IMG/VR virus record: IMGVR_UViG_3300000298_000017
Location: 1-43,390 of that record
DNA length: 43,390 bases
DNA from: a virus
Strand: one strand, 5' to 3'
Part shown: positions 31,772-38,536 of the stretch, in pieces
Layout of the letters: each line of letters starts with the position of its first letter
Numbering within the stretch: the first letter of the stretch is position 1
Made by a program: the position numbers and the translations under genes
Notes under the pieces: model-generated
The model's input: the letters and a program-made list of their open reading frames with translations, nothing else
What the model was told of the DNA's origin: nothing
The model's database searches: none

Positions 31772-32890
31772 TTGTCAATGAAATGCTGCAAATGCAGGAA
31801 AGAGATTCCAGACGAAAGCAAATTTTGTTTGAAATGTGGCGCAAAACAAAACTTATTACAAAGCCGCCATACTAGGGGAAACGGGCAAGGCACCGCAATC
31901 AAGCGTGGAAGCACCTGGACGGCCATTTGGACCATAGAGGTATATCCAGATACCAAAGAGAGGAAAATCCATCAGAAACGCCGCTGGAAGGGCGGATTTA
32001 AGACTAAGACCGCAGCCCTCGCTTATGCCGCCAATCCCATACAGGAAGAAAAGGAATCTCCGACGCTCCGCACCTATTACACTGGGTGGGAAAAATCCGA
32101 TATGTGCGACTTGTCCAGATCTAAACAGACAGCATTTAAAATCGCATGGAGTAAAATGAACGAATTAGCCGGAAAGCGTATGGATGAGCTTACCATCAAT
32201 CAGATACAGTCCTGTGTAAGCAGAAACGCTCCTACATATTATCCGGCAAAAGATATGAAAACGCTGTTATCCCATCTATACAGACGGGCTGTGGCAGAGG
32301 GGACAGCTAGAACTAACCTGGCAGAATTTATCCGTCTGCCTCCGCTGGAGGAAAAAGAGCTTCAGCCCTTCACTGAAATTGAACTGCACAAGCTCTGGAC
32401 CGCTTATGGAACTGGTGACCGCATAATCGGGTTTGTCCTCCTGATGATCTACACTGGGATGATGCCGGGAGAGCTTTTGAAGTTTAAGGGTGATATGGTA
32501 GACTGGACAGCTCATGAGATTAGAGGCTGTGGCCTGAAAACAAAAAAGCGTAAAGAAACACCCATTGTATTTCCCGACCTGTTGGAGCCAGTATTGCGTA
32601 ATCTTATTGAAAGCAGTAAGTCCCATTCCGACTATGTAGTAGGGCTAAACAAAGATAAATTTTATAGTGAATATCATGCCTCACTTCAACGAGCGGGGGT
32701 CCGGGATCTACCTCCCTATTCATGTCGCCACACAACGGCAACCGCTCTCGCACTTGGAAATATCGCCCCAAGCGTGATACAAGAAGTCATGCGACACACA
32801 AAATTCTCTACGACACAACGCTATATCCACCCAGATAGCGCATCGGCTTTGGCTGCCGTAAACGCTTTGGGGCAGGGAAAAGAATGCTAA
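31772..32890 (+). CDS. int: Tyrosine integrase with an N-terminal zinc ribbon
   Basis: C-terminal catalytic region YSCRHTTATALALGNIAPSVIQEVMRHTKFSTTQRYIHP (R...HxxR...Y). N-terminal CCKCRKEIPDESKFCLKCG. attP lies immediately downstream. Confidence 0.9.
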   Translation: MSMKCCKCRKEIPDESKFCLKCGAKQNLLQSRHTRGNGQGTAIKRGSTWTAIWTIEVYPDTKERKIHQKRRWKGGFKTKTAALAYAANPIQEEKESPTLRTYYTGWEKSDMCDLSRSKQTAFKIAWSKMNELAGKRMDELTINQIQSCVSRNAPTYYPAKDMKTLLSHLYRRAVAEGTARTNLAEFIRLPPLEEKELQPFTEIELHKLWTAYGTGDRIIGFVLLMIYTGMMPGELLKFKGDMVDWTAHEIRGCGLKTKKRKETPIVFPDLLEPVLRNLIESSKSHSDYVVGLNKDKFYSEYHASLQRAGVRDLPPYSCRHTTATALALGNIAPSVIQEVMRHTKFSTTQRYIHPDSASALAAVNALGQGKEC

Positions 32891-33210: not shown

Positions 33211-33241
33211 TCCGCCCCCAATTTTGAGGGCGGACTTTTTT
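33211..33241. terminator. Bidirectional-looking terminator between attP and the accessory cluster
   Basis: Stem TCCGCCC/GGGCGGA (33211-33217 and 33228-33234) followed by CTTTTTT on the plus strand. It lies directly after the stop of 33240..33746 on the minus strand. Confidence 0.6.
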
Positions 33242-33746
33242 ATCTTACGATGTACTTATAATACTTCGCCAGTTTATCGGGGCCAGCGTCCTTGTCGTCC
33301 AGGAATGCTTTCGCCATATCGACATAGAAATCGATCTTATCCCCGACCCCGAATTTTTTCGCCACCTTAACATAATCAGAGTAGATCATGTTAAGTGCAA
33401 CCCAAAATATATTTGGATCGTAGGTAAGAGAACGCTGTGACATCAACTGCTTTGCCTGCTCGATGGACCAATGCGGGCCTCTAGTTCCGTCCTCATTTTC
33501 CATTTTTTCAGTCCAGGCTTTTGCCATAGGGAGCGTGAAGCCTTGAGTCTCTTGACTATCCTCCTGCTGTGGGCTATCTTCTCCCCATTGGCAAAGGGCG
33601 TTGTATGCACTGTTGTAAACAGCGAGACATTCCGCCATTCTATCATCCATAGGAACGGCAGTACACTCGACAATTTTAAGTGTGAGCCAGTCCTTTGCGT
33701 TTTGACGTCCGGGCATAGCTCGGTCAAGAGTGGTTCTTGTGAGCAC
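33240..33746 (-). CDS. Hypothetical protein, 168 aa (conserved-looking, unknown function)
   Basis: GTG start after AGGGGGGGAGC. Contains AKAWTEKMENEDGTRGPHWSIEQAKQLM...NMIYSDYVKVAKKFGV...AKAFLDDKDAGPDKLAKYY. Confidence 0.6.
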   Translation of the reverse strand: MLTRTTLDRAMPGRQNAKDWLTLKIVECTAVPMDDRMAECLAVYNSAYNALCQWGEDSPQQEDSQETQGFTLPMAKAWTEKMENEDGTRGPHWSIEQAKQLMSQRSLTYDPNIFWVALNMIYSDYVKVAKKFGVGDKIDFYVDMAKAFLDDKDAGPDKLAKYYKYIVR

Positions 33747-33761
33747 AATGCTCCCCCCCTA

Positions 33762-34184
33762 TCAATCACGTTCCAACTGATTCATACAACGGCGGATTGC
33801 CTCACGCTCACGCTCACTGCCAGCTTTATCCATAAGCAGCTCCAGTTCTTCCATCATGTGCTCCTTGGCATCATGACGGCTATATCCTCCATCTCTGCTA
33901 TAGTCACCACGGTTGCTATAACCGTCCCGGCTATAGTGGCCTCGGACATAGTGCTTACCACGGTTAGCATAGCTGGAGCCACGATTATAGGAGCCTCGTC
34001 CCTCCCAGTCGCCCGCCTCAGAGTAGCCGCCGTCCTCCTCCAGAGCGCAGATTTTATCGATGTTCTTGATGGTATCAGTCAGCTTGTGGACGGTCTCCAG
34101 ATCACCAGCAGACATTTCAGGCTTGCGGGCAATCTCGTCCAGTTCGTCCTGGAGCTTATCCTTCAGCTCGTATAGTGCTTTCAT
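33762..34184 (-). CDS. Helical protein with a central Gly/Tyr/Arg/Ser/Asp low-complexity region
   Basis: 140 aa. Central stretch GGYSEAGDWEGRGSYNRGSSYANRGKHYVRGHYSRDGYSNRGDYSRDGGYSRHD is flanked by charged helices. Confidence 0.6.
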   Translation of the reverse strand: MKALYELKDKLQDELDEIARKPEMSAGDLETVHKLTDTIKNIDKICALEEDGGYSEAGDWEGRGSYNRGSSYANRGKHYVRGHYSRDGYSNRGDYSRDGGYSRHDAKEHMMEELELLMDKAGSEREREAIRRCMNQLERD

Positions 34185-34198
34185 AGTATCCTCTCCTT

Positions 34199-34639
34199 TC
34201 AGGCTACACGCTCAACAATGAAGTTACTGTTGGCTACTAAAATAGGCTGTGTACTGGTGTTTTTTGCGGCAACAGTGACACAGCAGCCACGGGGGACATC
34301 TACCACAGCGGAGACATAGATATTAAAGAAATTCTCCACAGCGGCAGGGGTAACAGTGGCGGTGGATGCGGTCAGCGCCTCACCATTGATGGAGATTGCC
34401 GCAGTGATGGCCTCCACGGTCCCACCGTCAGGGATGGCGATATTGGCGCCAAAGGAGACCTTGAACTTTGCCCGGCACTGGTTCGTAAGCCCACGAAGAG
34501 TCACCAGTCCAGCACCCTCCCGGTGTACAATACAAGGCTTGCTCGTGTTGGCCTCCTCAGTAAAGGGCACGTTCTGACCAGCGGCAACGGTTACGATTGC
34601 GCTATTTGTGTACTCGGCCAAAAAAATCATTCCTTTCAA
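34199..34639 (-). CDS. BclA C-terminal-domain-like (C1q/TNF-like jelly-roll) protein without a collagen region
   Basis: About 140 aa of beta-rich sequence ending ...PILVANSNFIVERVA, which resembles the Bacillus BclA end ...SASIIIEKVA as I recall it. The start codon is ambiguous (TTG/ATG cluster). Confidence 0.4.
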   Translation of the reverse strand: MKGMIFLAEYTNSAIVTVAAGQNVPFTEEANTSKPCIVHREGAGLVTLRGLTNQCRAKFKVSFGANIAIPDGGTVEAITAAISINGEALTASTATVTPAAVENFFNIYVSAVVDVPRGCCVTVAAKNTSTQPILVANSNFIVERVA

Positions 34640-34671
34640 AAAGATTAGCGGCGAGGCTATTGCCCCGCCGC
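34640..34671 (-). terminator. Intrinsic terminator after 34735..35493
   Basis: Minus-strand RNA GCGGCGGGGC-AAUA-GCCUCGCCGC (10 bp including one G-U) followed by UAAUCUUUUU. The G-U pair would be an A-C mismatch on the plus strand, which supports the minus orientation. Confidence 0.6.
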
Positions 34672-34734: not shown

Positions 34735-35493
34735 TTAGCAGCAGCCGCCGCAGGGATTACACCCACAACCGGCATAAGGGTTGGGCACCTGATAGGCCGG
34801 AACAGGCATGGGGTTGATGCGGCGGATCAGTTCAGCGGTCTGGGCCTCCTGATTGGCGGTGAAGAAAGCGTTCTGCGCCGCCTGGGAAGCCTGGAACTTC
34901 AGACTCTGGTTTTCAGCCGTCAGAGTAGCAATCTTGTCCTGAGTCAAAAAGTCAAGGATCGCACGGCTGTTGGCGTTCTGGTTGTCGATGATGTCCCTGG
35001 TGCTGTTCTGGATGGTATTCCGGGTATCGCAAGCCTGGGTAGCCATGTCGTAGCGAACGCCCTGAATTGCCGCCTGGGTAGCCGCACCCTGGGTGGACAG
35101 GTTATAATTCACGCCGTCCACTGCCCGCTGGGTCTGGCAGCAGCAGTCCTGAAGCTGATAGCCCAGATTGCAGATAGCATTATCCACACCATGGAAGCCG
35201 TTGGTTACGGCGGAGAGGATACCGCTCTGGCCGGTCTGGAGACCGTTCAGCGCAAAGCCCTCGTTTACATCTGCCCTGGTGGCCCAGCCCTGACCGGAGG
35301 GAGAGCCCAGGCCATTGCCGGAGTTACCACCCCAGCCGCCGCCATAGCCGCCCCAACCGAACATACCGAAGATCAGGAACAGAATAATCCAGGAGGCCCA
35401 ATCGCCTCCCCAGCCGCCAAAACCGCCATTCCCGCCCTGATAGGCAGGCTGCACAGGCATGGTCATTACAGCGCCGTCAGAAGAAAGACTCAT
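34735..35493 (-). CDS. Gly-rich single-TM protein with a Gln/Asn/Thr-rich body and a Cys-rich C-terminus
   Basis: AAGGAG, 8 nt, then ATG at 35493. Contains GGNGGFGGWGGDWASWIILFLIFGMFGWGGYGGGWGGNSGNG, a central DCCCQ, and ends YAGCGCNPCGGCC. Confidence 0.6.
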   Translation of the reverse strand: MSLSSDGAVMTMPVQPAYQGGNGGFGGWGGDWASWIILFLIFGMFGWGGYGGGWGGNSGNGLGSPSGQGWATRADVNEGFALNGLQTGQSGILSAVTNGFHGVDNAICNLGYQLQDCCCQTQRAVDGVNYNLSTQGAATQAAIQGVRYDMATQACDTRNTIQNSTRDIIDNQNANSRAILDFLTQDKIATLTAENQSLKFQASQAAQNAFFTANQEAQTAELIRRINPMPVPAYQVPNPYAGCGCNPCGGCC

Positions 35494-35550
35494 TGTGTTA
35501 TCTCCTTTTTGATTTATTTTCAAAACCGTGGCCACGGATTTTGATTGAAG

Positions 35551-35772
35551 TTATTTACCAAACATTCCCCTCATCCCCTCAAACATCCCTGACATCTGCT
35601 GGGCTTGTTTCTGGACCTGGTTAAGCTGATCTTGGGAAATGCGGCCAGATGATACCATCTCTTGTATCATGGCGTTGGGGTCCTTCCCCTTCATCTGGTT
35701 CATGAACTGCTGGAATTGCTGCATCATATTAGGCTGACGATTGCCGCCCATAGCGTTGAAAAACGGATTCAT
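35551..35772 (-). CDS. Small Gln/Met-rich protein, 73 aa
   Basis: Product MNPFFNAMGGNRQPNMMQQFQQFMNQMKGKDPNAMIQEM...QQMSGMFEGMRGMFGK. ATGA-coupled upstream. Confidence 0.55.
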   Translation of the reverse strand: MNPFFNAMGGNRQPNMMQQFQQFMNQMKGKDPNAMIQEMVSSGRISQDQLNQVQKQAQQMSGMFEGMRGMFGK

Positions 35773-36236
35773 TCAGCATCCTCCTTCACAGATTTCTTTT
35801 TTACAGGGGTCGTCTCTTTGGAGCTCAGAGCGTCCACACGGGCCGCAAGAGCGTCCAGGTCATCCTTGGTGGCATAGCGGATAGAAGGCTCCTGCGTGGC
35901 TGCTGGGGCAGTCCTTGTGGTATTGCTGCGTTCTACCAGATCATAAATTTTGATGCTGGGCTTTCCAGAGGCATCCGCCTGCTTGAGATAAATAGTGGGG
36001 CTGTTGCTGTCCCATAAAGCAACGGCACTGTTGGGGGCCACCAGATATCCCATGGCCTCCTGCTCTCCATTCACCCAAACCATGGACTGCCCATTTTGCT
36101 GGGACTGTACGGGCGGCATTTGCGGTCCTTGCATGGGAGGTTGGAACTGCTGCCCACGGAGCTGGGCCAGTTGGTCCGGCATGGGCGGCTGGTAGTACAT
36201 GGGCTGATAGCCCGGATAGTAAGGTGTATAGGCCAT
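35769..36236 (-). CDS. Protein with a Pro/Gln/Tyr-rich N-terminus and a small globular domain
   Basis: Product MAYTPYYPGYQPMYYQPPMPDQLAQLRGQQFQPPMQGPQMPPVQSQQ, then MVWVNGEQEAMGYLVAPNSAVALWDSNSPTIYLKQADASGKPSIKIYDL. Confidence 0.6.
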   Translation of the reverse strand: MAYTPYYPGYQPMYYQPPMPDQLAQLRGQQFQPPMQGPQMPPVQSQQNGQSMVWVNGEQEAMGYLVAPNSAVALWDSNSPTIYLKQADASGKPSIKIYDLVERSNTTRTAPAATQEPSIRYATKDDLDALAARVDALSSKETTPVKKKSVKEDAE

Positions 36237-36242
36237 ATCACG

Positions 36243-36635
36243 TCATCCTTTCCAGTAGTACAAAACTTCCTTTTCCCCAGAATCCCATGTATCCAGAATC
36301 GTCCCGTCGATAATACAGACCACATGGGAATTCAGGCCGAGAAGGTGCACCCCGCTTCTATGGGTCCTGGCAAATTCATTCACCGTTGTGTGAGGCGGAG
36401 CCGGTCTTCGCTCCAGACCATACTGGCTCAGATAGCTCCTCCACACCTCGTTGGAGCTTGGCATATCCTTCAGGAGATACCCTTCCAGGCACAGGCCAAT
36501 ATAGGTGGTGTCCCAGTCCTGGCCCAACGCCGTGGAAATAGCTCTAACCGTGCAGTCTCCCACATTCCTGTTGTAAGGGTTTTCGTTGTGCCAGGAATAC
36601 CTCTCCGTTGTTCGCATGGCGGCTTTCCACCTCAT
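36243..36635 (-). CDS. Putative papain-fold Cys/His enzyme
   Basis: Contains NENPYNRNVGDCTVRAIS (candidate catalytic Cys) ... LNSHVVCIIDGTILDTWDS (candidate His/Asp). The start could be at 36635 or 36617. Confidence 0.4.
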   Translation of the reverse strand: MRWKAAMRTTERYSWHNENPYNRNVGDCTVRAISTALGQDWDTTYIGLCLEGYLLKDMPSSNEVWRSYLSQYGLERRPAPPHTTVNEFARTHRSGVHLLGLNSHVVCIIDGTILDTWDSGEKEVLYYWKG

Positions 36636-36747
36636 TCAGATACTTTTCCAAACCATAATCATCCCCCTGTGCCCGAAACCACATAATGGTTTCCCTGGCG
36701 CAATCGGGCCGGATGCCAGCGGCAATCAATCTCTCTACCGGGGTCAT
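36544..36747 (-). CDS. Small protein whose 3' third overlaps the next gene out of frame
   Basis: Product MTPVERLIAAGIRPDCARETIMWFRAQGDDYGLEKYLNEVE... Overlaps 36243..36635 by 74-92 nt. Confidence 0.4.
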   Translation of the reverse strand: MTPVERLIAAGIRPDCARETIMWFRAQGDDYGLEKYLNEVESRHANNGEVFLAQRKPLQQECGRLHG

Positions 36748-36845: not shown

Positions 36846-36884
36846 ATAAAAATTCCCCGGCTGGGTACGGTCCCAGTCGGGGTT
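36846..36884 (-). terminator. Hairpin plus U-run after the sigma-like gene
   Basis: Arms at 36855-36865 and 36872-36882 (CCCCGxCTGGG/CCCAGxCGGGG, one non-Watson-Crick position). The minus strand then reads AATTTTTAT. Confidence 0.45.
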
Positions 36885-36893
36885 GTGTACGTT

Positions 36894-37145
36894 TTATGTA
36901 CGGTTTGTGTAGAGCTTGGCGGATACATTTTCCACCCGTTCCAAAATATGTTTGAGGTGGTCTCCCACAGTGGCCCTGCGCCATCCCAGCTCCGCCGCAA
37001 TATCCATTTGACACCATTTGTCAATAAGATATCGTCTGGCGATCAGTTCATCGTCCCGGTGGAGTGCGGCCTCGTGGATGGCCTCCTCTAGTTGAGAGCG
37101 CAAGAGCTTGTCAAGCGATTCCGGTAGCTTTACTCTTGCGCTCAT
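36894..37145 (-). CDS. Sigma-70 region-4-like HTH protein, 83 aa
   Basis: Contains DELIARRYLIDKWCQMDIAAELGWRRATVGDHLKHILERV. Lies 16 nt downstream of the endolysin gene. Confidence 0.5.
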   Translation of the reverse strand: MSARVKLPESLDKLLRSQLEEAIHEAALHRDDELIARRYLIDKWCQMDIAAELGWRRATVGDHLKHILERVENVSAKLYTNRT

Positions 37146-37161: not shown

Positions 37162-37929
37162 TTACTTCAACGCCGCAGCTCGTGCCATAACGGCACTTTC
37201 CTCACGAGTGACAAATGCCATAGGTCGGGTCCCATCTGTCAGGCCAAGCTCGTTGGCCTCTGCAAACAGCTTCGGCATACTGGCCGGCAGCTCCGCTCGC
37301 TCGGCCAGATAGCGGTCCATGTACTCCTTCCACTGCTCATAGGTCACAGTCTCATCCTCTCCTTCCATCCACCGGGCCACATCGGCCCTGAAATTGTCCA
37401 TGGTTTTGCCGAATTTAGGGAACCAGTGAAGGACATCCCCGTGGTTACTGGCGATCCCTCTGCGGTAGCCCTCCTGATGGCAGATTACCACTCCGTCAGC
37501 CAACGGGTCCAGGTTATACTCCTTGCAGAGATAGGCTGTCAGTTCCACGGCCTCCTGGTACACCGCCTTAAAATAGCTGGCATCCTCCAGGCCGTCCTCG
37601 CTGATTTCAAAGGAAATGTGGGTATCATTTGCACTGCCGTTCTTTCCTCGGCCACAGTGCCAGCCCCTCCAGTTCCAGGGCAGGGTCTGGACCGTACCCA
37701 CCGATCCGTCTGCAAAGAGGCCTACAAAGGCGTGGGCGCACTTTTCCAGTCCGGGCCTGTCCCAATCATTCCCGTACTGATTCCGACCAATTACATCATC
37801 TCCGGGCACATAGCGGGCCACAGAGGGGTTATTAGCCCCAGTCGAGTGTACCATTACCCCCTGTGGCTGGATGGTCCTCCCGGCCCTGTAACAGTCGTTC
37901 TTGGTCAAATACTGTTTTCGTAATCTCAT
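37162..37929 (-). CDS. Endolysin: N-acetylmuramoyl-L-alanine amidase (Amidase_2/PGRP type) with an SLH-like C-terminal module
   Basis: Contains QGVMVHSTGANNP...WHCGRGKNGSANDTHISFEI...VVICHQEGYRRGIASNHGDVLHW. C-terminal ELGLTDGTRPMAFVTREESAVMARAA resembles an S-layer-homology repeat. Confidence 0.8.
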   Translation of the reverse strand: MRLRKQYLTKNDCYRAGRTIQPQGVMVHSTGANNPSVARYVPGDDVIGRNQYGNDWDRPGLEKCAHAFVGLFADGSVGTVQTLPWNWRGWHCGRGKNGSANDTHISFEISEDGLEDASYFKAVYQEAVELTAYLCKEYNLDPLADGVVICHQEGYRRGIASNHGDVLHWFPKFGKTMDNFRADVARWMEGEDETVTYEQWKEYMDRYLAERAELPASMPKLFAEANELGLTDGTRPMAFVTREESAVMARAAALK

Positions 37930-37990
37930 GGTCTTCCTCCATTGACATATCAGGGCGTGTGCTGTAATATGCGGATAAGGGAGTGATAAA

Positions 37991-38260
37991 ATGCATGATT
38001 ACAAATTGCTTTGCCACTTTTTGAGGCAGGCAGAAACTGCTTTCAGCCTATCAGTGGACACAAACCAGGAATTTTCTGCACTAGCAGACAAGTTCGAGTC
38101 CGGCAACGCCACAAATGAAGACCGGGAAATGGCCCTCAGAATCCTGACAAATGCCAGGGAGAACTTTTCCTCCATGCCGGACAGCGAGGAGAAAATGACT
38201 GGGATGTTAGAGACCGCCCTGATTATTCAACAGCTAAATATGGAGCTAAAGGCACCCTGA
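37991..38260 (+). CDS. Hypothetical protein, 89 aa, plus strand, inside the lysis cassette
   Basis: ATG after GGGAGTGATAAA. Followed directly by a terminator. Confidence 0.5.
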   Translation: MHDYKLLCHFLRQAETAFSLSVDTNQEFSALADKFESGNATNEDREMALRILTNARENFSSMPDSEEKMTGMLETALIIQQLNMELKAP

Positions 38261-38276
38261 TTGGGTGCTTTTTTAT
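38252..38276 (+). terminator. Intrinsic terminator
   Basis: GCACCC-tgatt-GGGTGC (38252-38268) followed by TTTTTTATT. Confidence 0.65.
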
Positions 38277-38536
38277 TATTCTCTTTCCGCTTCCTCTTTG
38301 GCGGCCTCATCCTCCGCCACGCCAGCAGCCACGGCGGCCTCGAATGCCTCCTTGTCAGGGAAGGCGGCGGCCAGCTCCTGACCGTGACGGCCAGTAAACT
38401 CACGCATCTCCTTGGCCTCCTCATGGGTAATCTCAGGGTGCTTCTCCCGGAGCATAGCCATACCCACAGTAGCCAGGTCGGGGGCATCGTTCTTCTCAGT
38501 GATTTCGTACAGTTCATAGAGCATTTCGGTGTTCAT
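38276..38536 (-). CDS. Acidic hypothetical protein, 86 aa
   Basis: Track ORF located between the holin and the endolysin. Confidence 0.5.
   Translation of the reverse strand: MNTEMLYELYEITEKNDAPDLATVGMAMLREKHPEITHEEAKEMREFTGRHGQELAAAFPDKEAFEAAVAAGVAEDEAAKEEAERE

Follow-up and report, generated by a model that had tools for sequence, protein, structure and literature searches.

Several described systems join a membrane anchor to a helix or stalk. The lambda spanins Rz and Rz1 have an N-terminal anchor, a long helix that spans the periplasm, covalent Cys linkage and a Pro-rich element, and are encoded after the endolysin. BhlA/UviB and XhlA, which lie beside the holin and lysin genes of Gram-positive phages, are proteins of 70-90 aa that combine a single transmembrane (TM) helix with a coiled coil. 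In the nap formed by BclA/F-Anchor with ExsFA/BxpB, as in EDA-A1-like TNF ligands, an anchor and a stalk carry a trimeric TNF/C1q-type head, while the YjcZ (tiny_TM_bacill, TIGR01732) sporulation mini-proteins of Bacilli are short hydrophobic helices between Gly-rich segments. Rods that end in poly-Pro and a terminal Cys cross-linker occur in the collagen III C-terminal knot and in cnidarian minicollagens; these unrelated eukaryotic proteins, which are secreted and work under oxidising conditions, offer no more than an analogy. Here we describe a gene in the IMG/VR virus record IMGVR_UViG_3300000298_000017 (positions 1 to 43,390; the whole stretch of 43,390 nucleotides is referred to as the window), the 252-aa product of which recalls parts of all these proteins. 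Together with the genes around it, it forms a system outside the known kinds: YjcZ, spanins, BhlA/XhlA, exosporium-leader proteins and the defence systems in PADLOC all fail to account for it. Its family is already catalogued in PHROGs as phrog_16490, of unknown function, and is uncharacterised.

One old phage family with three jointly conserved features

The protein matches phrog_16490 with E = 1.1e-78 (265.8 bits), and its full-length architecture is common to the homologs. More than 8000 close homologs were found, all of them unnamed or annotated 'MAG TPA Caudoviricetes hypothetical protein', and an exhaustive HMMER scan for the family returned 1395 clusters at 50% identity. A single near-identical variant was found on 284 contigs, and the index of the public-assembly collection lists it in 601 blocks. 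The family is confined to Firmicutes, chiefly Clostridia. A preliminary description of the gene had recognised no known function, and none is assigned by any source consulted; it had also considered the architecture unusual for a phage, a view that does not survive the finding of a phage-specific PHROG with thousands of members.

The three-part layout outlined in the same description (a Gly-rich/TM/Gly-rich module, a body rich in Gln, Asn, Thr and Ala, and a Cys tail) is borne out by the translation, in which every string it quoted is present: GGNGGFGGWGGDWASWIILFLIFGMFGWGGYGGGWGGNSGNG at residues 20-60, DCCCQ at residues 116-120 and AGCGCNPCGGCC at the C-terminal end. Cys accounts for five of the last ten residues, as had been counted, and for ten of the 252 overall; Gly (37), Ala (28), Gln (23), Asn (21) and Thr (16) are abundant. 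The sole strongly hydrophobic stretch, residues ~32-48, lies between segments rich in Gly, Trp, Tyr and Phe. The gene, for which no strand had been given, is on the minus strand and starts at an ATG preceded by a strong Shine-Dalgarno sequence (Table 1). An alternative GTG start at 35535 is used by none of the 120 homologs listed, which are 229-262 aa long and mostly 252 aa.

Alignments were made of 44 diverse members and of 103 diverse representatives of the family, and features were counted over the 103 representatives, each of at least 200 aa. The mean length of the family is 258 aa. An N-terminal TM helix is found in 84 representatives, the remaining ones being N-terminally truncated, and CCC in 95; the last 15 residues hold at least two Cys in 92 and at least three in 70. 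The Gly-rich flanks of the TM helix are kept across the 44-sequence alignment. Family members share one order, in which a variable N-terminus, a Gly-rich segment, the TM helix, a second Gly-rich segment, 'ATRAD..GF' and helical repeats in varying number are followed by the near-invariant CCC, TRDIIDxQNA...ASQxAQN, PxPxPAYxVxNP and a GCGC-type tail. The TM module, the rod with CCC and the Cys tail are conserved jointly in one old family, and there is little doubt about either this architecture or the family assignment. The earlier view of a chimeric fusion is not upheld, as the three parts always occur together; partial matches that placed the N-terminal module in other architectures proved to be frameshifted or chimeric assemblies. 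The N-terminal, rod and tail modules correlate only weakly with one another (0.19-0.30, mirror-tree), which suggests recombination inside the gene.

The likeness of the N-terminal module to YjcZ mini-proteins (Gly-rich, short hydrophobic helix, Gly-rich), which we take to be one of composition, did not extend to homology. No NCBIfam family was matched by the protein at E up to 10, and the Pfam search returned only a sub-threshold coiled-coil match (HAP1_N, E 0.036). The YjcZ and tiny-TM models of NCBIfam and Pfam matched none of the 44 diverse members, nor, with E up to 10, any of ten N-terminal modules taken on their own, where a class IIb bacteriocin match (E = 1.2) was the one hit. Compared with YjcZ the protein is 5-8 times longer, with 190 residues past the TM module, and it is borne by phages and prophages of Clostridia, including non-sporulators. 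The YjcZ relationship proposed in the preliminary description is therefore rejected; the homologs themselves are annotated as hypothetical and are not proven structural or lysis proteins.

A helical rod with length steps of eleven residues

An AlphaFold2 model built from the 103-sequence alignment (mean predicted local distance difference test score, pLDDT, 74, and above 90 over residues 130-230) places the TM helix (residues 32-44) between disordered Gly/aromatic linkers, with a single helix over residues 84-225 and a disordered Pro/Cys tail after them. At 1.5 angstroms per residue the long helix would measure ~21 nm. Its hydrophobic period is 3.64-3.67 residues (11/3), a value attained by about 1 in 5000 shuffles, and its autocorrelation peaks at lag-11 and lag-18. 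A canonical heptad coiled coil was rejected, the 3.5-residue period being no higher than in shuffles. Across relatives, the distance from ATRAD to CCC follows ladders of 45/56/67/78/89 and 52/63/74/85/96 residues, and the whole rod measures 141/152/163/174 or 159/170/181 residues; the 11-residue steps have a binomial p of 7e-22, a figure not corrected for phylogeny. The 11/3 period and the ladders of 11 residues together fit a register-preserving hendecad coiled coil, which would be tuned in length between ~18 and 34 nm from one relative to another. A sequence search of the PDB with the protein returned no significant relative.

Over the 103 representatives, the flank before the TM helix holds on average 0.5 Lys/Arg and 2.9 Asp/Glu, and the 30 residues that follow the helix hold 1.3 Lys/Arg. 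Because the N-terminal flank is acidic and almost devoid of Lys/Arg, and because the products of the neighbouring genes appear cytoplasmic, an N-out/C-in orientation is weakly predicted.

A mobile cassette with a near-obligatory beta-protein

On the minus strand the gene order is holin homolog, 96-aa open reading frame (ORF), endolysin, korA83 (a stand-alone helix-turn-helix protein, HTH), a hairpin, orf67, cysPep, PQ155, QM73 and the phrog_16490 gene, and thereafter a second hairpin, b146, GSY140 and a DUF7841 protein, beyond which lies the integrase on the opposite strand (Table 1). The unit from orf67 to the phrog_16490 gene is bracketed by the two hairpins, and the 113-nt spacer 3' of that gene folds at -41.3 kcal/mol (z = -4.6 versus shuffled sequence). 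Related loci were retrieved with eight closer family sequences and their neighbours scored by profile hidden Markov models. The same gene order is found in 84-88 loci fetched from gut Clostridia, and among the 56 loci with two flanks the neighbours are PQ155 (46), b146 (40), cysPep (39), GSY140 (35) and QM73 (32). GSY140 is the best tracker of the phrog_16490 protein (mirror-tree rho ~0.55). What lies upstream varies: in 33 diverse flanks there are at least six types of lysin, holins of three families and, occasionally, capsid genes. From these diverse flanks, and from the presence of an HTH gene of its own at differing sites, it follows that the cassette is a mobile module with its own regulator, usually placed behind lysis genes. 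KorA83 may be the switch for a 'very late' transcription unit. Relatives of korA83 which head the cassette give weak matches to Sigma70_r4_2/GerE.

The slot directly after the phrog_16490 gene is occupied, in 73 of 76 loci (96%), by one of two small beta-proteins, b146 in 49 loci and an alternative Cys-rich protein in 24. The b146 model (pLDDT 92, predicted template modelling score 0.85) is a jelly roll of TNF/C1q type, with invariant C49 and G-C113-C114 and no signal peptide. In Foldseek its best PDB matches are the C-terminal domains (CTD) of F-BclA and of Bacillus anthracis BclA, together with the stand-alone exosporium anchors BxpB, ExsFA and ExsF (template modelling score ~0.75), followed by TNF ligands, C1q and phage fibre knobs; the probability is 1.0 and the scores are 0.70-0.77 for 9h38, 1wck, 8d02, 7r1m, EDA and C1q. 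Its matches in BFVD are free-standing proteins of 130-145 aa encoded by uncultured gut phages; a Pfam sequence search returned no match, BclA_C included. The TNF/C1q/BclA-CTD fold is thus a property of b146 and not of the phrog_16490 protein. The alternative beta-protein, of ~133 aa, has the consensus MACKxVCKLCDxLVISQ...CC with invariant C7, C10 and C42, and has neither a Pfam family nor a PDB relative; examples are L054:3984-4376, L009:8773-9186 and L022:8836-9267, with 21 further loci. Homology between the two beta-proteins was rejected (hhalign probability 0.6%).

The arrangement resembles the BclA/ExsF nap in that a stand-alone protein similar to ExsFA/BxpB is encoded next to a Pro-rich peptide, the latter comparable to an exosporium leader. 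ExsF tethers BclA and F-Anchor by binding such a Pro-rich leader peptide, and this gave rise to the idea that the Pro/Cys tip of the phrog_16490 protein may dock into b146. Unlike in BclA-type proteins and TNF ligands, however, the stalk and the b146 head are separate polypeptides, and the stalk is predicted to be an alpha-helical hendecad rod, not collagen, its sequence being without GXY repeats. Further differences from the BclA type are a head lacking a signal peptide, non-sporulating hosts, no co-evolution of tail and head, and no match to the exosporium-leader model TIGR03720.

Near-identical cassette proteins are encoded in the genomes of Flintibacter hominis and Dysosmobacter welbionis, the latter described as non-spore-forming and monoderm. 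In Butyrivibrio virus Ceridwen, a cultured siphovirus, the cassette follows the lysin directly and comprises cysPep, PQ155-like and QM73-like genes, a family member of 275 aa with every hallmark, and a b146 homolog. Ceridwen forms plaques, lacks an integrase and has been seen only in a lytic cycle. The cassette is accordingly found in temperate prophages as well as in an apparently virulent phage, and its carriers range from siphovirus-like phages (L001-L003) to one with a P22-type portal (L004), with genomes of 30-85 kb. Butyrivibrio is a non-sporulating genus. Together with the close spacing of the genes after the endolysin, the non-sporulating hosts and the lytic Ceridwen speak against a role in the spore coat or in lysogenic conversion alone, and for one exerted late in the lytic cycle. 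The 'Prevotella' label of one cassette-bearing 557-kb scaffold (L040, JAMPDF010000001.1) is not credible, given the 32% GC of the locus and its Firmicutes-phage-like genes. Several other phage contigs are binned as Collinsella, Gastranaerophilaceae or Mollicutes.

Proposed role and its alternatives

In the phrog_16490 protein, a single-pass anchor with flexible linkers precedes a hendecad rod of quantised length, and a Pro hinge and Cys tip follow; linkage of its gene to a Cys-bearing beta-protein and to low-complexity partners without signal peptides is near-obligatory. Tentatively, we regard the protein as a membrane-anchored stalk subunit of a multi-protein assembly encoded by a mobile phage accessory cassette. 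A cross-linked stalk scaffold as its mechanism is more tentative still, and any specific biological role is held with less confidence than that mechanism. The N-terminal helix would anchor the protein in the cytoplasmic membrane, and the rigid, probably oligomeric hendecad coiled coil would serve as a spacer of fixed length; metal-thiolate or disulfide bonds of the cysteines may tie the chains together and/or fasten them to Cys-bearing proteins of the same cassette. As transcription of the unit would accompany or immediately follow that of the lysis genes, the unit may act late at the cell envelope, for instance in lysis and release or in exclusion, rather than as a spore or lysogenic-conversion factor. 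Among possible roles, that of a late envelope scaffold ranks first, before lysis accessory, exclusion or defence, virion fibre or ejection protein, and spore surface.

Several observations weigh against the stalk scaffold. The positive-inside signal is weak, and disulfides are unexpected in the cytoplasm of a strict anaerobe. The earlier suggestion that the cysteines act as cross-links or metal ligands remains reasonable, although cross-linking is, like the oligomeric state and the topology of the protein, something we infer. Foldseek with the model returned zero analogues, as is usual for a lone helix. Some loci are capsid-adjacent rather than lysis-adjacent, and in L085/L086 the cassette lies away from lysis genes, again behind a small sigma-region-4/GerE-like HTH. 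The idea of docking into b146 likewise found no support: TIGR03720 matched none of ten C-terminal tails at E up to 10 and none of the 44 full-length members, tail class is not associated with partner type, and mirror-tree co-evolution of tail and b146 (rho 0.15) is below that of control genes.

Best placed among the alternatives, albeit rather unlikely, is a lysis accessory, a Gram-positive counterpart of spanins, BhlA or XhlA in which a wall-spanning rod would aid the final envelope disruption or the timing of lysis, with the papain-like product of the cassette as an additional hydrolase of the wall. Holin and endolysin genes directly precede the cassette in the window, as they do in many loci whose lysins are of unrelated types, korA83 would be transcribed together with the endolysin, the tunable rod of ~18-34 nm is comparable to wall thickness, and an N-terminal TM helix, a long helix, Cys and a Pro-rich segment are combined as in Rz/Rz1. 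However, the hosts are monoderm and offer no outer membrane to fuse, there is no lipoprotein partner (an o-spanin lipoprotein gene is neither adjacent nor embedded), sequence similarity to the lambda spanins is absent, and the repeat is hendecad, not heptad, in a gene that belongs to a cassette of 6-9 genes. As regards an i-spanin, the rod is present but the host is monoderm, and the acidic N-terminal flank weakly favours N-out over N-in/C-out. BhlA/UviB and XhlA, for their part, lack the Cys tail and the Gly-rich flanks; the phrog_16490 protein matches no BhlA, XhlA or holin family in Pfam and no lysis family in PHROGs, and a separate, dedicated holin of PF16079 type is already there. The cassette is, moreover, at times detached from lysis genes, and a lysis accessory would leave five or six co-conserved low-complexity or jelly-roll partners unexplained.

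Clearly unlikely is a module for superinfection exclusion or abortive infection, which would be built around the protein as a membrane-bound effector or sensor whose long tail reaches into the cytoplasm, loosely as in ZorA; parts of incoming phages would be detected by the jelly roll, with the Cys-His-Asp protein as the activating protease. A mobile, terminator-bracketed cassette with its own regulator, typically at a prophage end, would suit such a module, as would the co-conservation of a membrane protein with a candidate protease, and exclusion systems are used by temperate and virulent phages alike. Against it, the PADLOC v2 defence models returned only one weak match among the cassette proteins, to PQ155, and none for the phrog_16490 protein; weak ZorA matches in one or two of the 44 members are coiled-coil noise. 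Nuclease, NTPase and signalling domains are lacking, and low-complexity proteins rich in Gln/Pro/Tyr, Gly/Ser/Tyr/Arg or Met/Gln are atypical of defence systems.

Less likely again is a virion component, either an accessory fibre made of rod and jelly-roll knob or an ejection protein, the hydrophobic N-terminus of which would be kept soluble by the Met/Gln-rich mini-protein and inserted into the membrane of the next host. In its favour, phage fibres often end in TNF/C1q-type knobs, and an extended helical rod of 11/18-residue periodicity is reminiscent of tape-measure and fibre proteins. Signal peptides are missing from the partners as they are from virion proteins, cysteine cross-linking would befit an extracellular particle, and a virulent phage carries the cassette. 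Nevertheless, the phages that carry the cassette have unrelated structural modules (siphovirus-like or with a P22 portal) and the phage already has a full tail module; the cassette stands outside the morphogenesis block under its own regulator, and a strongly hydrophobic helix of Ile, Leu and Phe would be unusual for a fibre.

The reading last in rank, and very improbable, is a spore-surface module delivered by prophage-driven conversion (a YjcZ-like anchor in the outer forespore membrane, a Cys-linked nap and a BclA/ExsF-like cap), for although the b146 fold (closest to BclA-CTD, F-BclA, BxpB and ExsFA), the binding of Pro-rich leaders by ExsF, partners without signal peptides as in coat proteins, many conserved Cys alongside the low-complexity proteins, a small GerE/sigma-region-4-like regulator and the restriction to Firmicutes, mainly Clostridia, lend some substance to the spore coat or crust hint of the preliminary description, that hint is contradicted by the absence of YjcZ similarity, of exosporium-leader and BclA_C matches and of collagen repeats, by the presence of the cassette in non-spore-forming D. 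welbionis and in an integrase-less lytic phage of Butyrivibrio, by the tight packing of the genes behind lysis genes, and by a jelly-roll fold equally typical of phage fibres.

Neighbouring genes and further features of the window

The coordinates of the gene, its modules and its neighbours are collected in Table 1.

Table 1. Features in and around the phrog_16490 gene, by position in the window.
Feature	Position	Strand	Basis
Tyrosine integrase with N-terminal zinc ribbon; prophage end beside the cassette	31772..32890	plus	domain matches
DUF7841 protein (PF25223); in other loci fused with a protein rich in R/D/Y	33240..33746	minus	Pfam, comparison of loci
GSY140, phrog_28802; helical ends and G/S/Y/R-rich low-complexity centre	33762..34184	minus	PHROG, profiles
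b146, 140-aa jelly roll like TNF/C1q/BclA-CTD/ExsF; downstream partner	34199..34621	minus	model, Foldseek
Terminator-like hairpin, 10 bp (9 GC) and T-run, directly 3' of the phrog_16490 gene	34638..34671	minus	hairpin scan
Coding sequence of the phrog_16490 member, 252 aa and stop	34735..35493	minus	ORF list, PHROG match, translation
Cys-rich tail GCGCNPCGGCC, residues 242-252	34738..34770	minus	translation, family survey
Conserved Pro-rich motif PMPVPAYQVPNPY, residues 228-240; family consensus PxPxPAYxVxNP	34774..34812	minus	alignments
Predicted continuous alpha-helical rod, residues 84-225, ~21 nm, 11-residue periodicity	34819..35244	minus	model, periodicity tests
CCC motif within the rod, residues 117-119	35137..35145	minus	in 95/103 representatives
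Gly/aromatic-rich - TM - Gly/aromatic-rich module, residues 19-62	35308..35439	minus	sequence, alignment
Hydrophobic TM helix, residues ~32-47 (model helix 32-44)	35353..35400	minus	hydrophobicity, AlphaFold model
Shine-Dalgarno sequence AAGGAGA of the phrog_16490 gene	35502..35508	minus	7 nt from ATG
QM73, phrog_22984; 73-aa Met/Gln-rich mini-protein, directly upstream of the phrog_16490 gene	35551..35772	minus	PHROG, profiles
PQ155, phrog_21718; P/Q/Y-rich N-terminus and conserved small domain	35769..36236	minus	PHROG; commonest neighbour
cysPep, phrog_3754, ~124 aa; invariant D-C...H...D, candidate papain-like triad	36243..36617	minus	PHROG, alignment
orf67, small ORF opening the sub-operon	36544..36747	minus	overlaps cysPep start by 74 nt in another frame
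Terminator-like hairpin between korA83 and the orf67-led sub-operon	36855..36885	minus	hairpin scan
korA83, 83-aa stand-alone HTH (weak KorA match), 16 nt past the endolysin	36894..37145	minus	Pfam, spacing
Endolysin (Amidase_2)	37162..37929	minus	Pfam, PHROG
96-aa ORF between holin homolog and endolysin	38227..38517	minus	ORF list
Holin homolog, 66% identical to the PF16079 holin of L001	38579..38824	minus	sequence comparison

Upstream of the endolysin, plus-strand matches resembling promoters and terminators accompany the ~300-nt gap at 37930-38226; in the relatives L001-L004, unlike in the window, the holin overlaps the amidase directly. At the opposite border, the integrase lies ~350 nt from the end of the cassette and carries its Zn_Ribbon_1/DZR zinc ribbon ahead of arm-binding and catalytic domains. 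A longer fused protein containing orf67 was rejected, a 90%-identity cluster with unrelated lipoprotein-like proteins of 196-266 aa being a clustering artefact.

Beyond the cassette, the cysPep family occurs in Bacillus Tsamsa-like phages (as 'putative peptidase'), Geobacillus phage GBK2 and Lak megaphages, and its motif VGDCTVRAIS presumably recalls the Cys loops of OTU and NlpC/P60-type enzymes. Residues 54-137 of PQ155 account for the PADLOC match mentioned above, to a 'Cyclase' (oligonucleotide cyclase) model with E 7e-5 and 20 bits, which is probably due to a small beta-domain in common rather than to any role in defence. Longer GSY140-like proteins of 231-243 aa, rich in Arg, Gly, Tyr and Asp, are encoded in L009 (+1239..+1970 from the phrog_16490 homolog), L045, L022 and L040 (L040:9241-9972), and by eye those of L009 and L045 have a DUF7841-like C-terminus. 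Such a GSY140-DUF7841 fusion would provide a Rosetta-stone link between the window genes at 33762-34184 and 33240-33746.

PDB sequence searches with cysPep, b146, PQ155, GSY140 and the alternative beta-protein returned nothing significant, Rfam and tRNA scans of the window found nothing and no tRNA gene, and no signal peptide or lipobox was seen by eye in the cassette partners or in neighbouring and embedded ORFs. A literature search on the cassette module, DUF7841 and phage BclA-like proteins likewise found nothing relevant. In MT835513.1, a 43.9-kb record of an uncultured phage, the cassette is divided between the two ends, with the homologs of cysPep, PQ155 and the phrog_16490 protein at 42.0-43.8 kb and that of b146 at 592-927, an arrangement compatible with a genome that is circular or circularly permuted.

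Significance

Among the uncharacterised proteins of the human gut virome, the phrog_16490 family is one of the more common, and its fixed set of partners matches no characterised system. It is doubtful, as an overall picture, that a hitherto unrecognised and very widespread system of gut-Clostridia phages builds a late, Cys-stapled stalk array on the host membrane together with beta-proteins that are TNF/BclA-like or otherwise Cys-rich. If this were true, the length of the stalk would be tuned in 11-residue steps to the host envelope, with a possible part in release, in exclusion or in the adhesion of lysing cells, and the array would be a phage-made envelope structure without a characterised counterpart in Gram-positive phage biology. 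The question is directly testable, as a cultured pair carries the cassette, Butyrivibrio virus Ceridwen on B. fibrisolvens DSM 3071. Should the cassette indeed build a membrane-anchored, length-tuned, Cys-stapled late structure, it would constitute a new module in the lytic programme of Gram-positive phages, one that could affect lysis, membrane shedding and infection resistance in abundant commensals, among them Dysosmobacter, Flintibacter, Anaerotruncus, Lachnospiraceae and Butyrivibrio.

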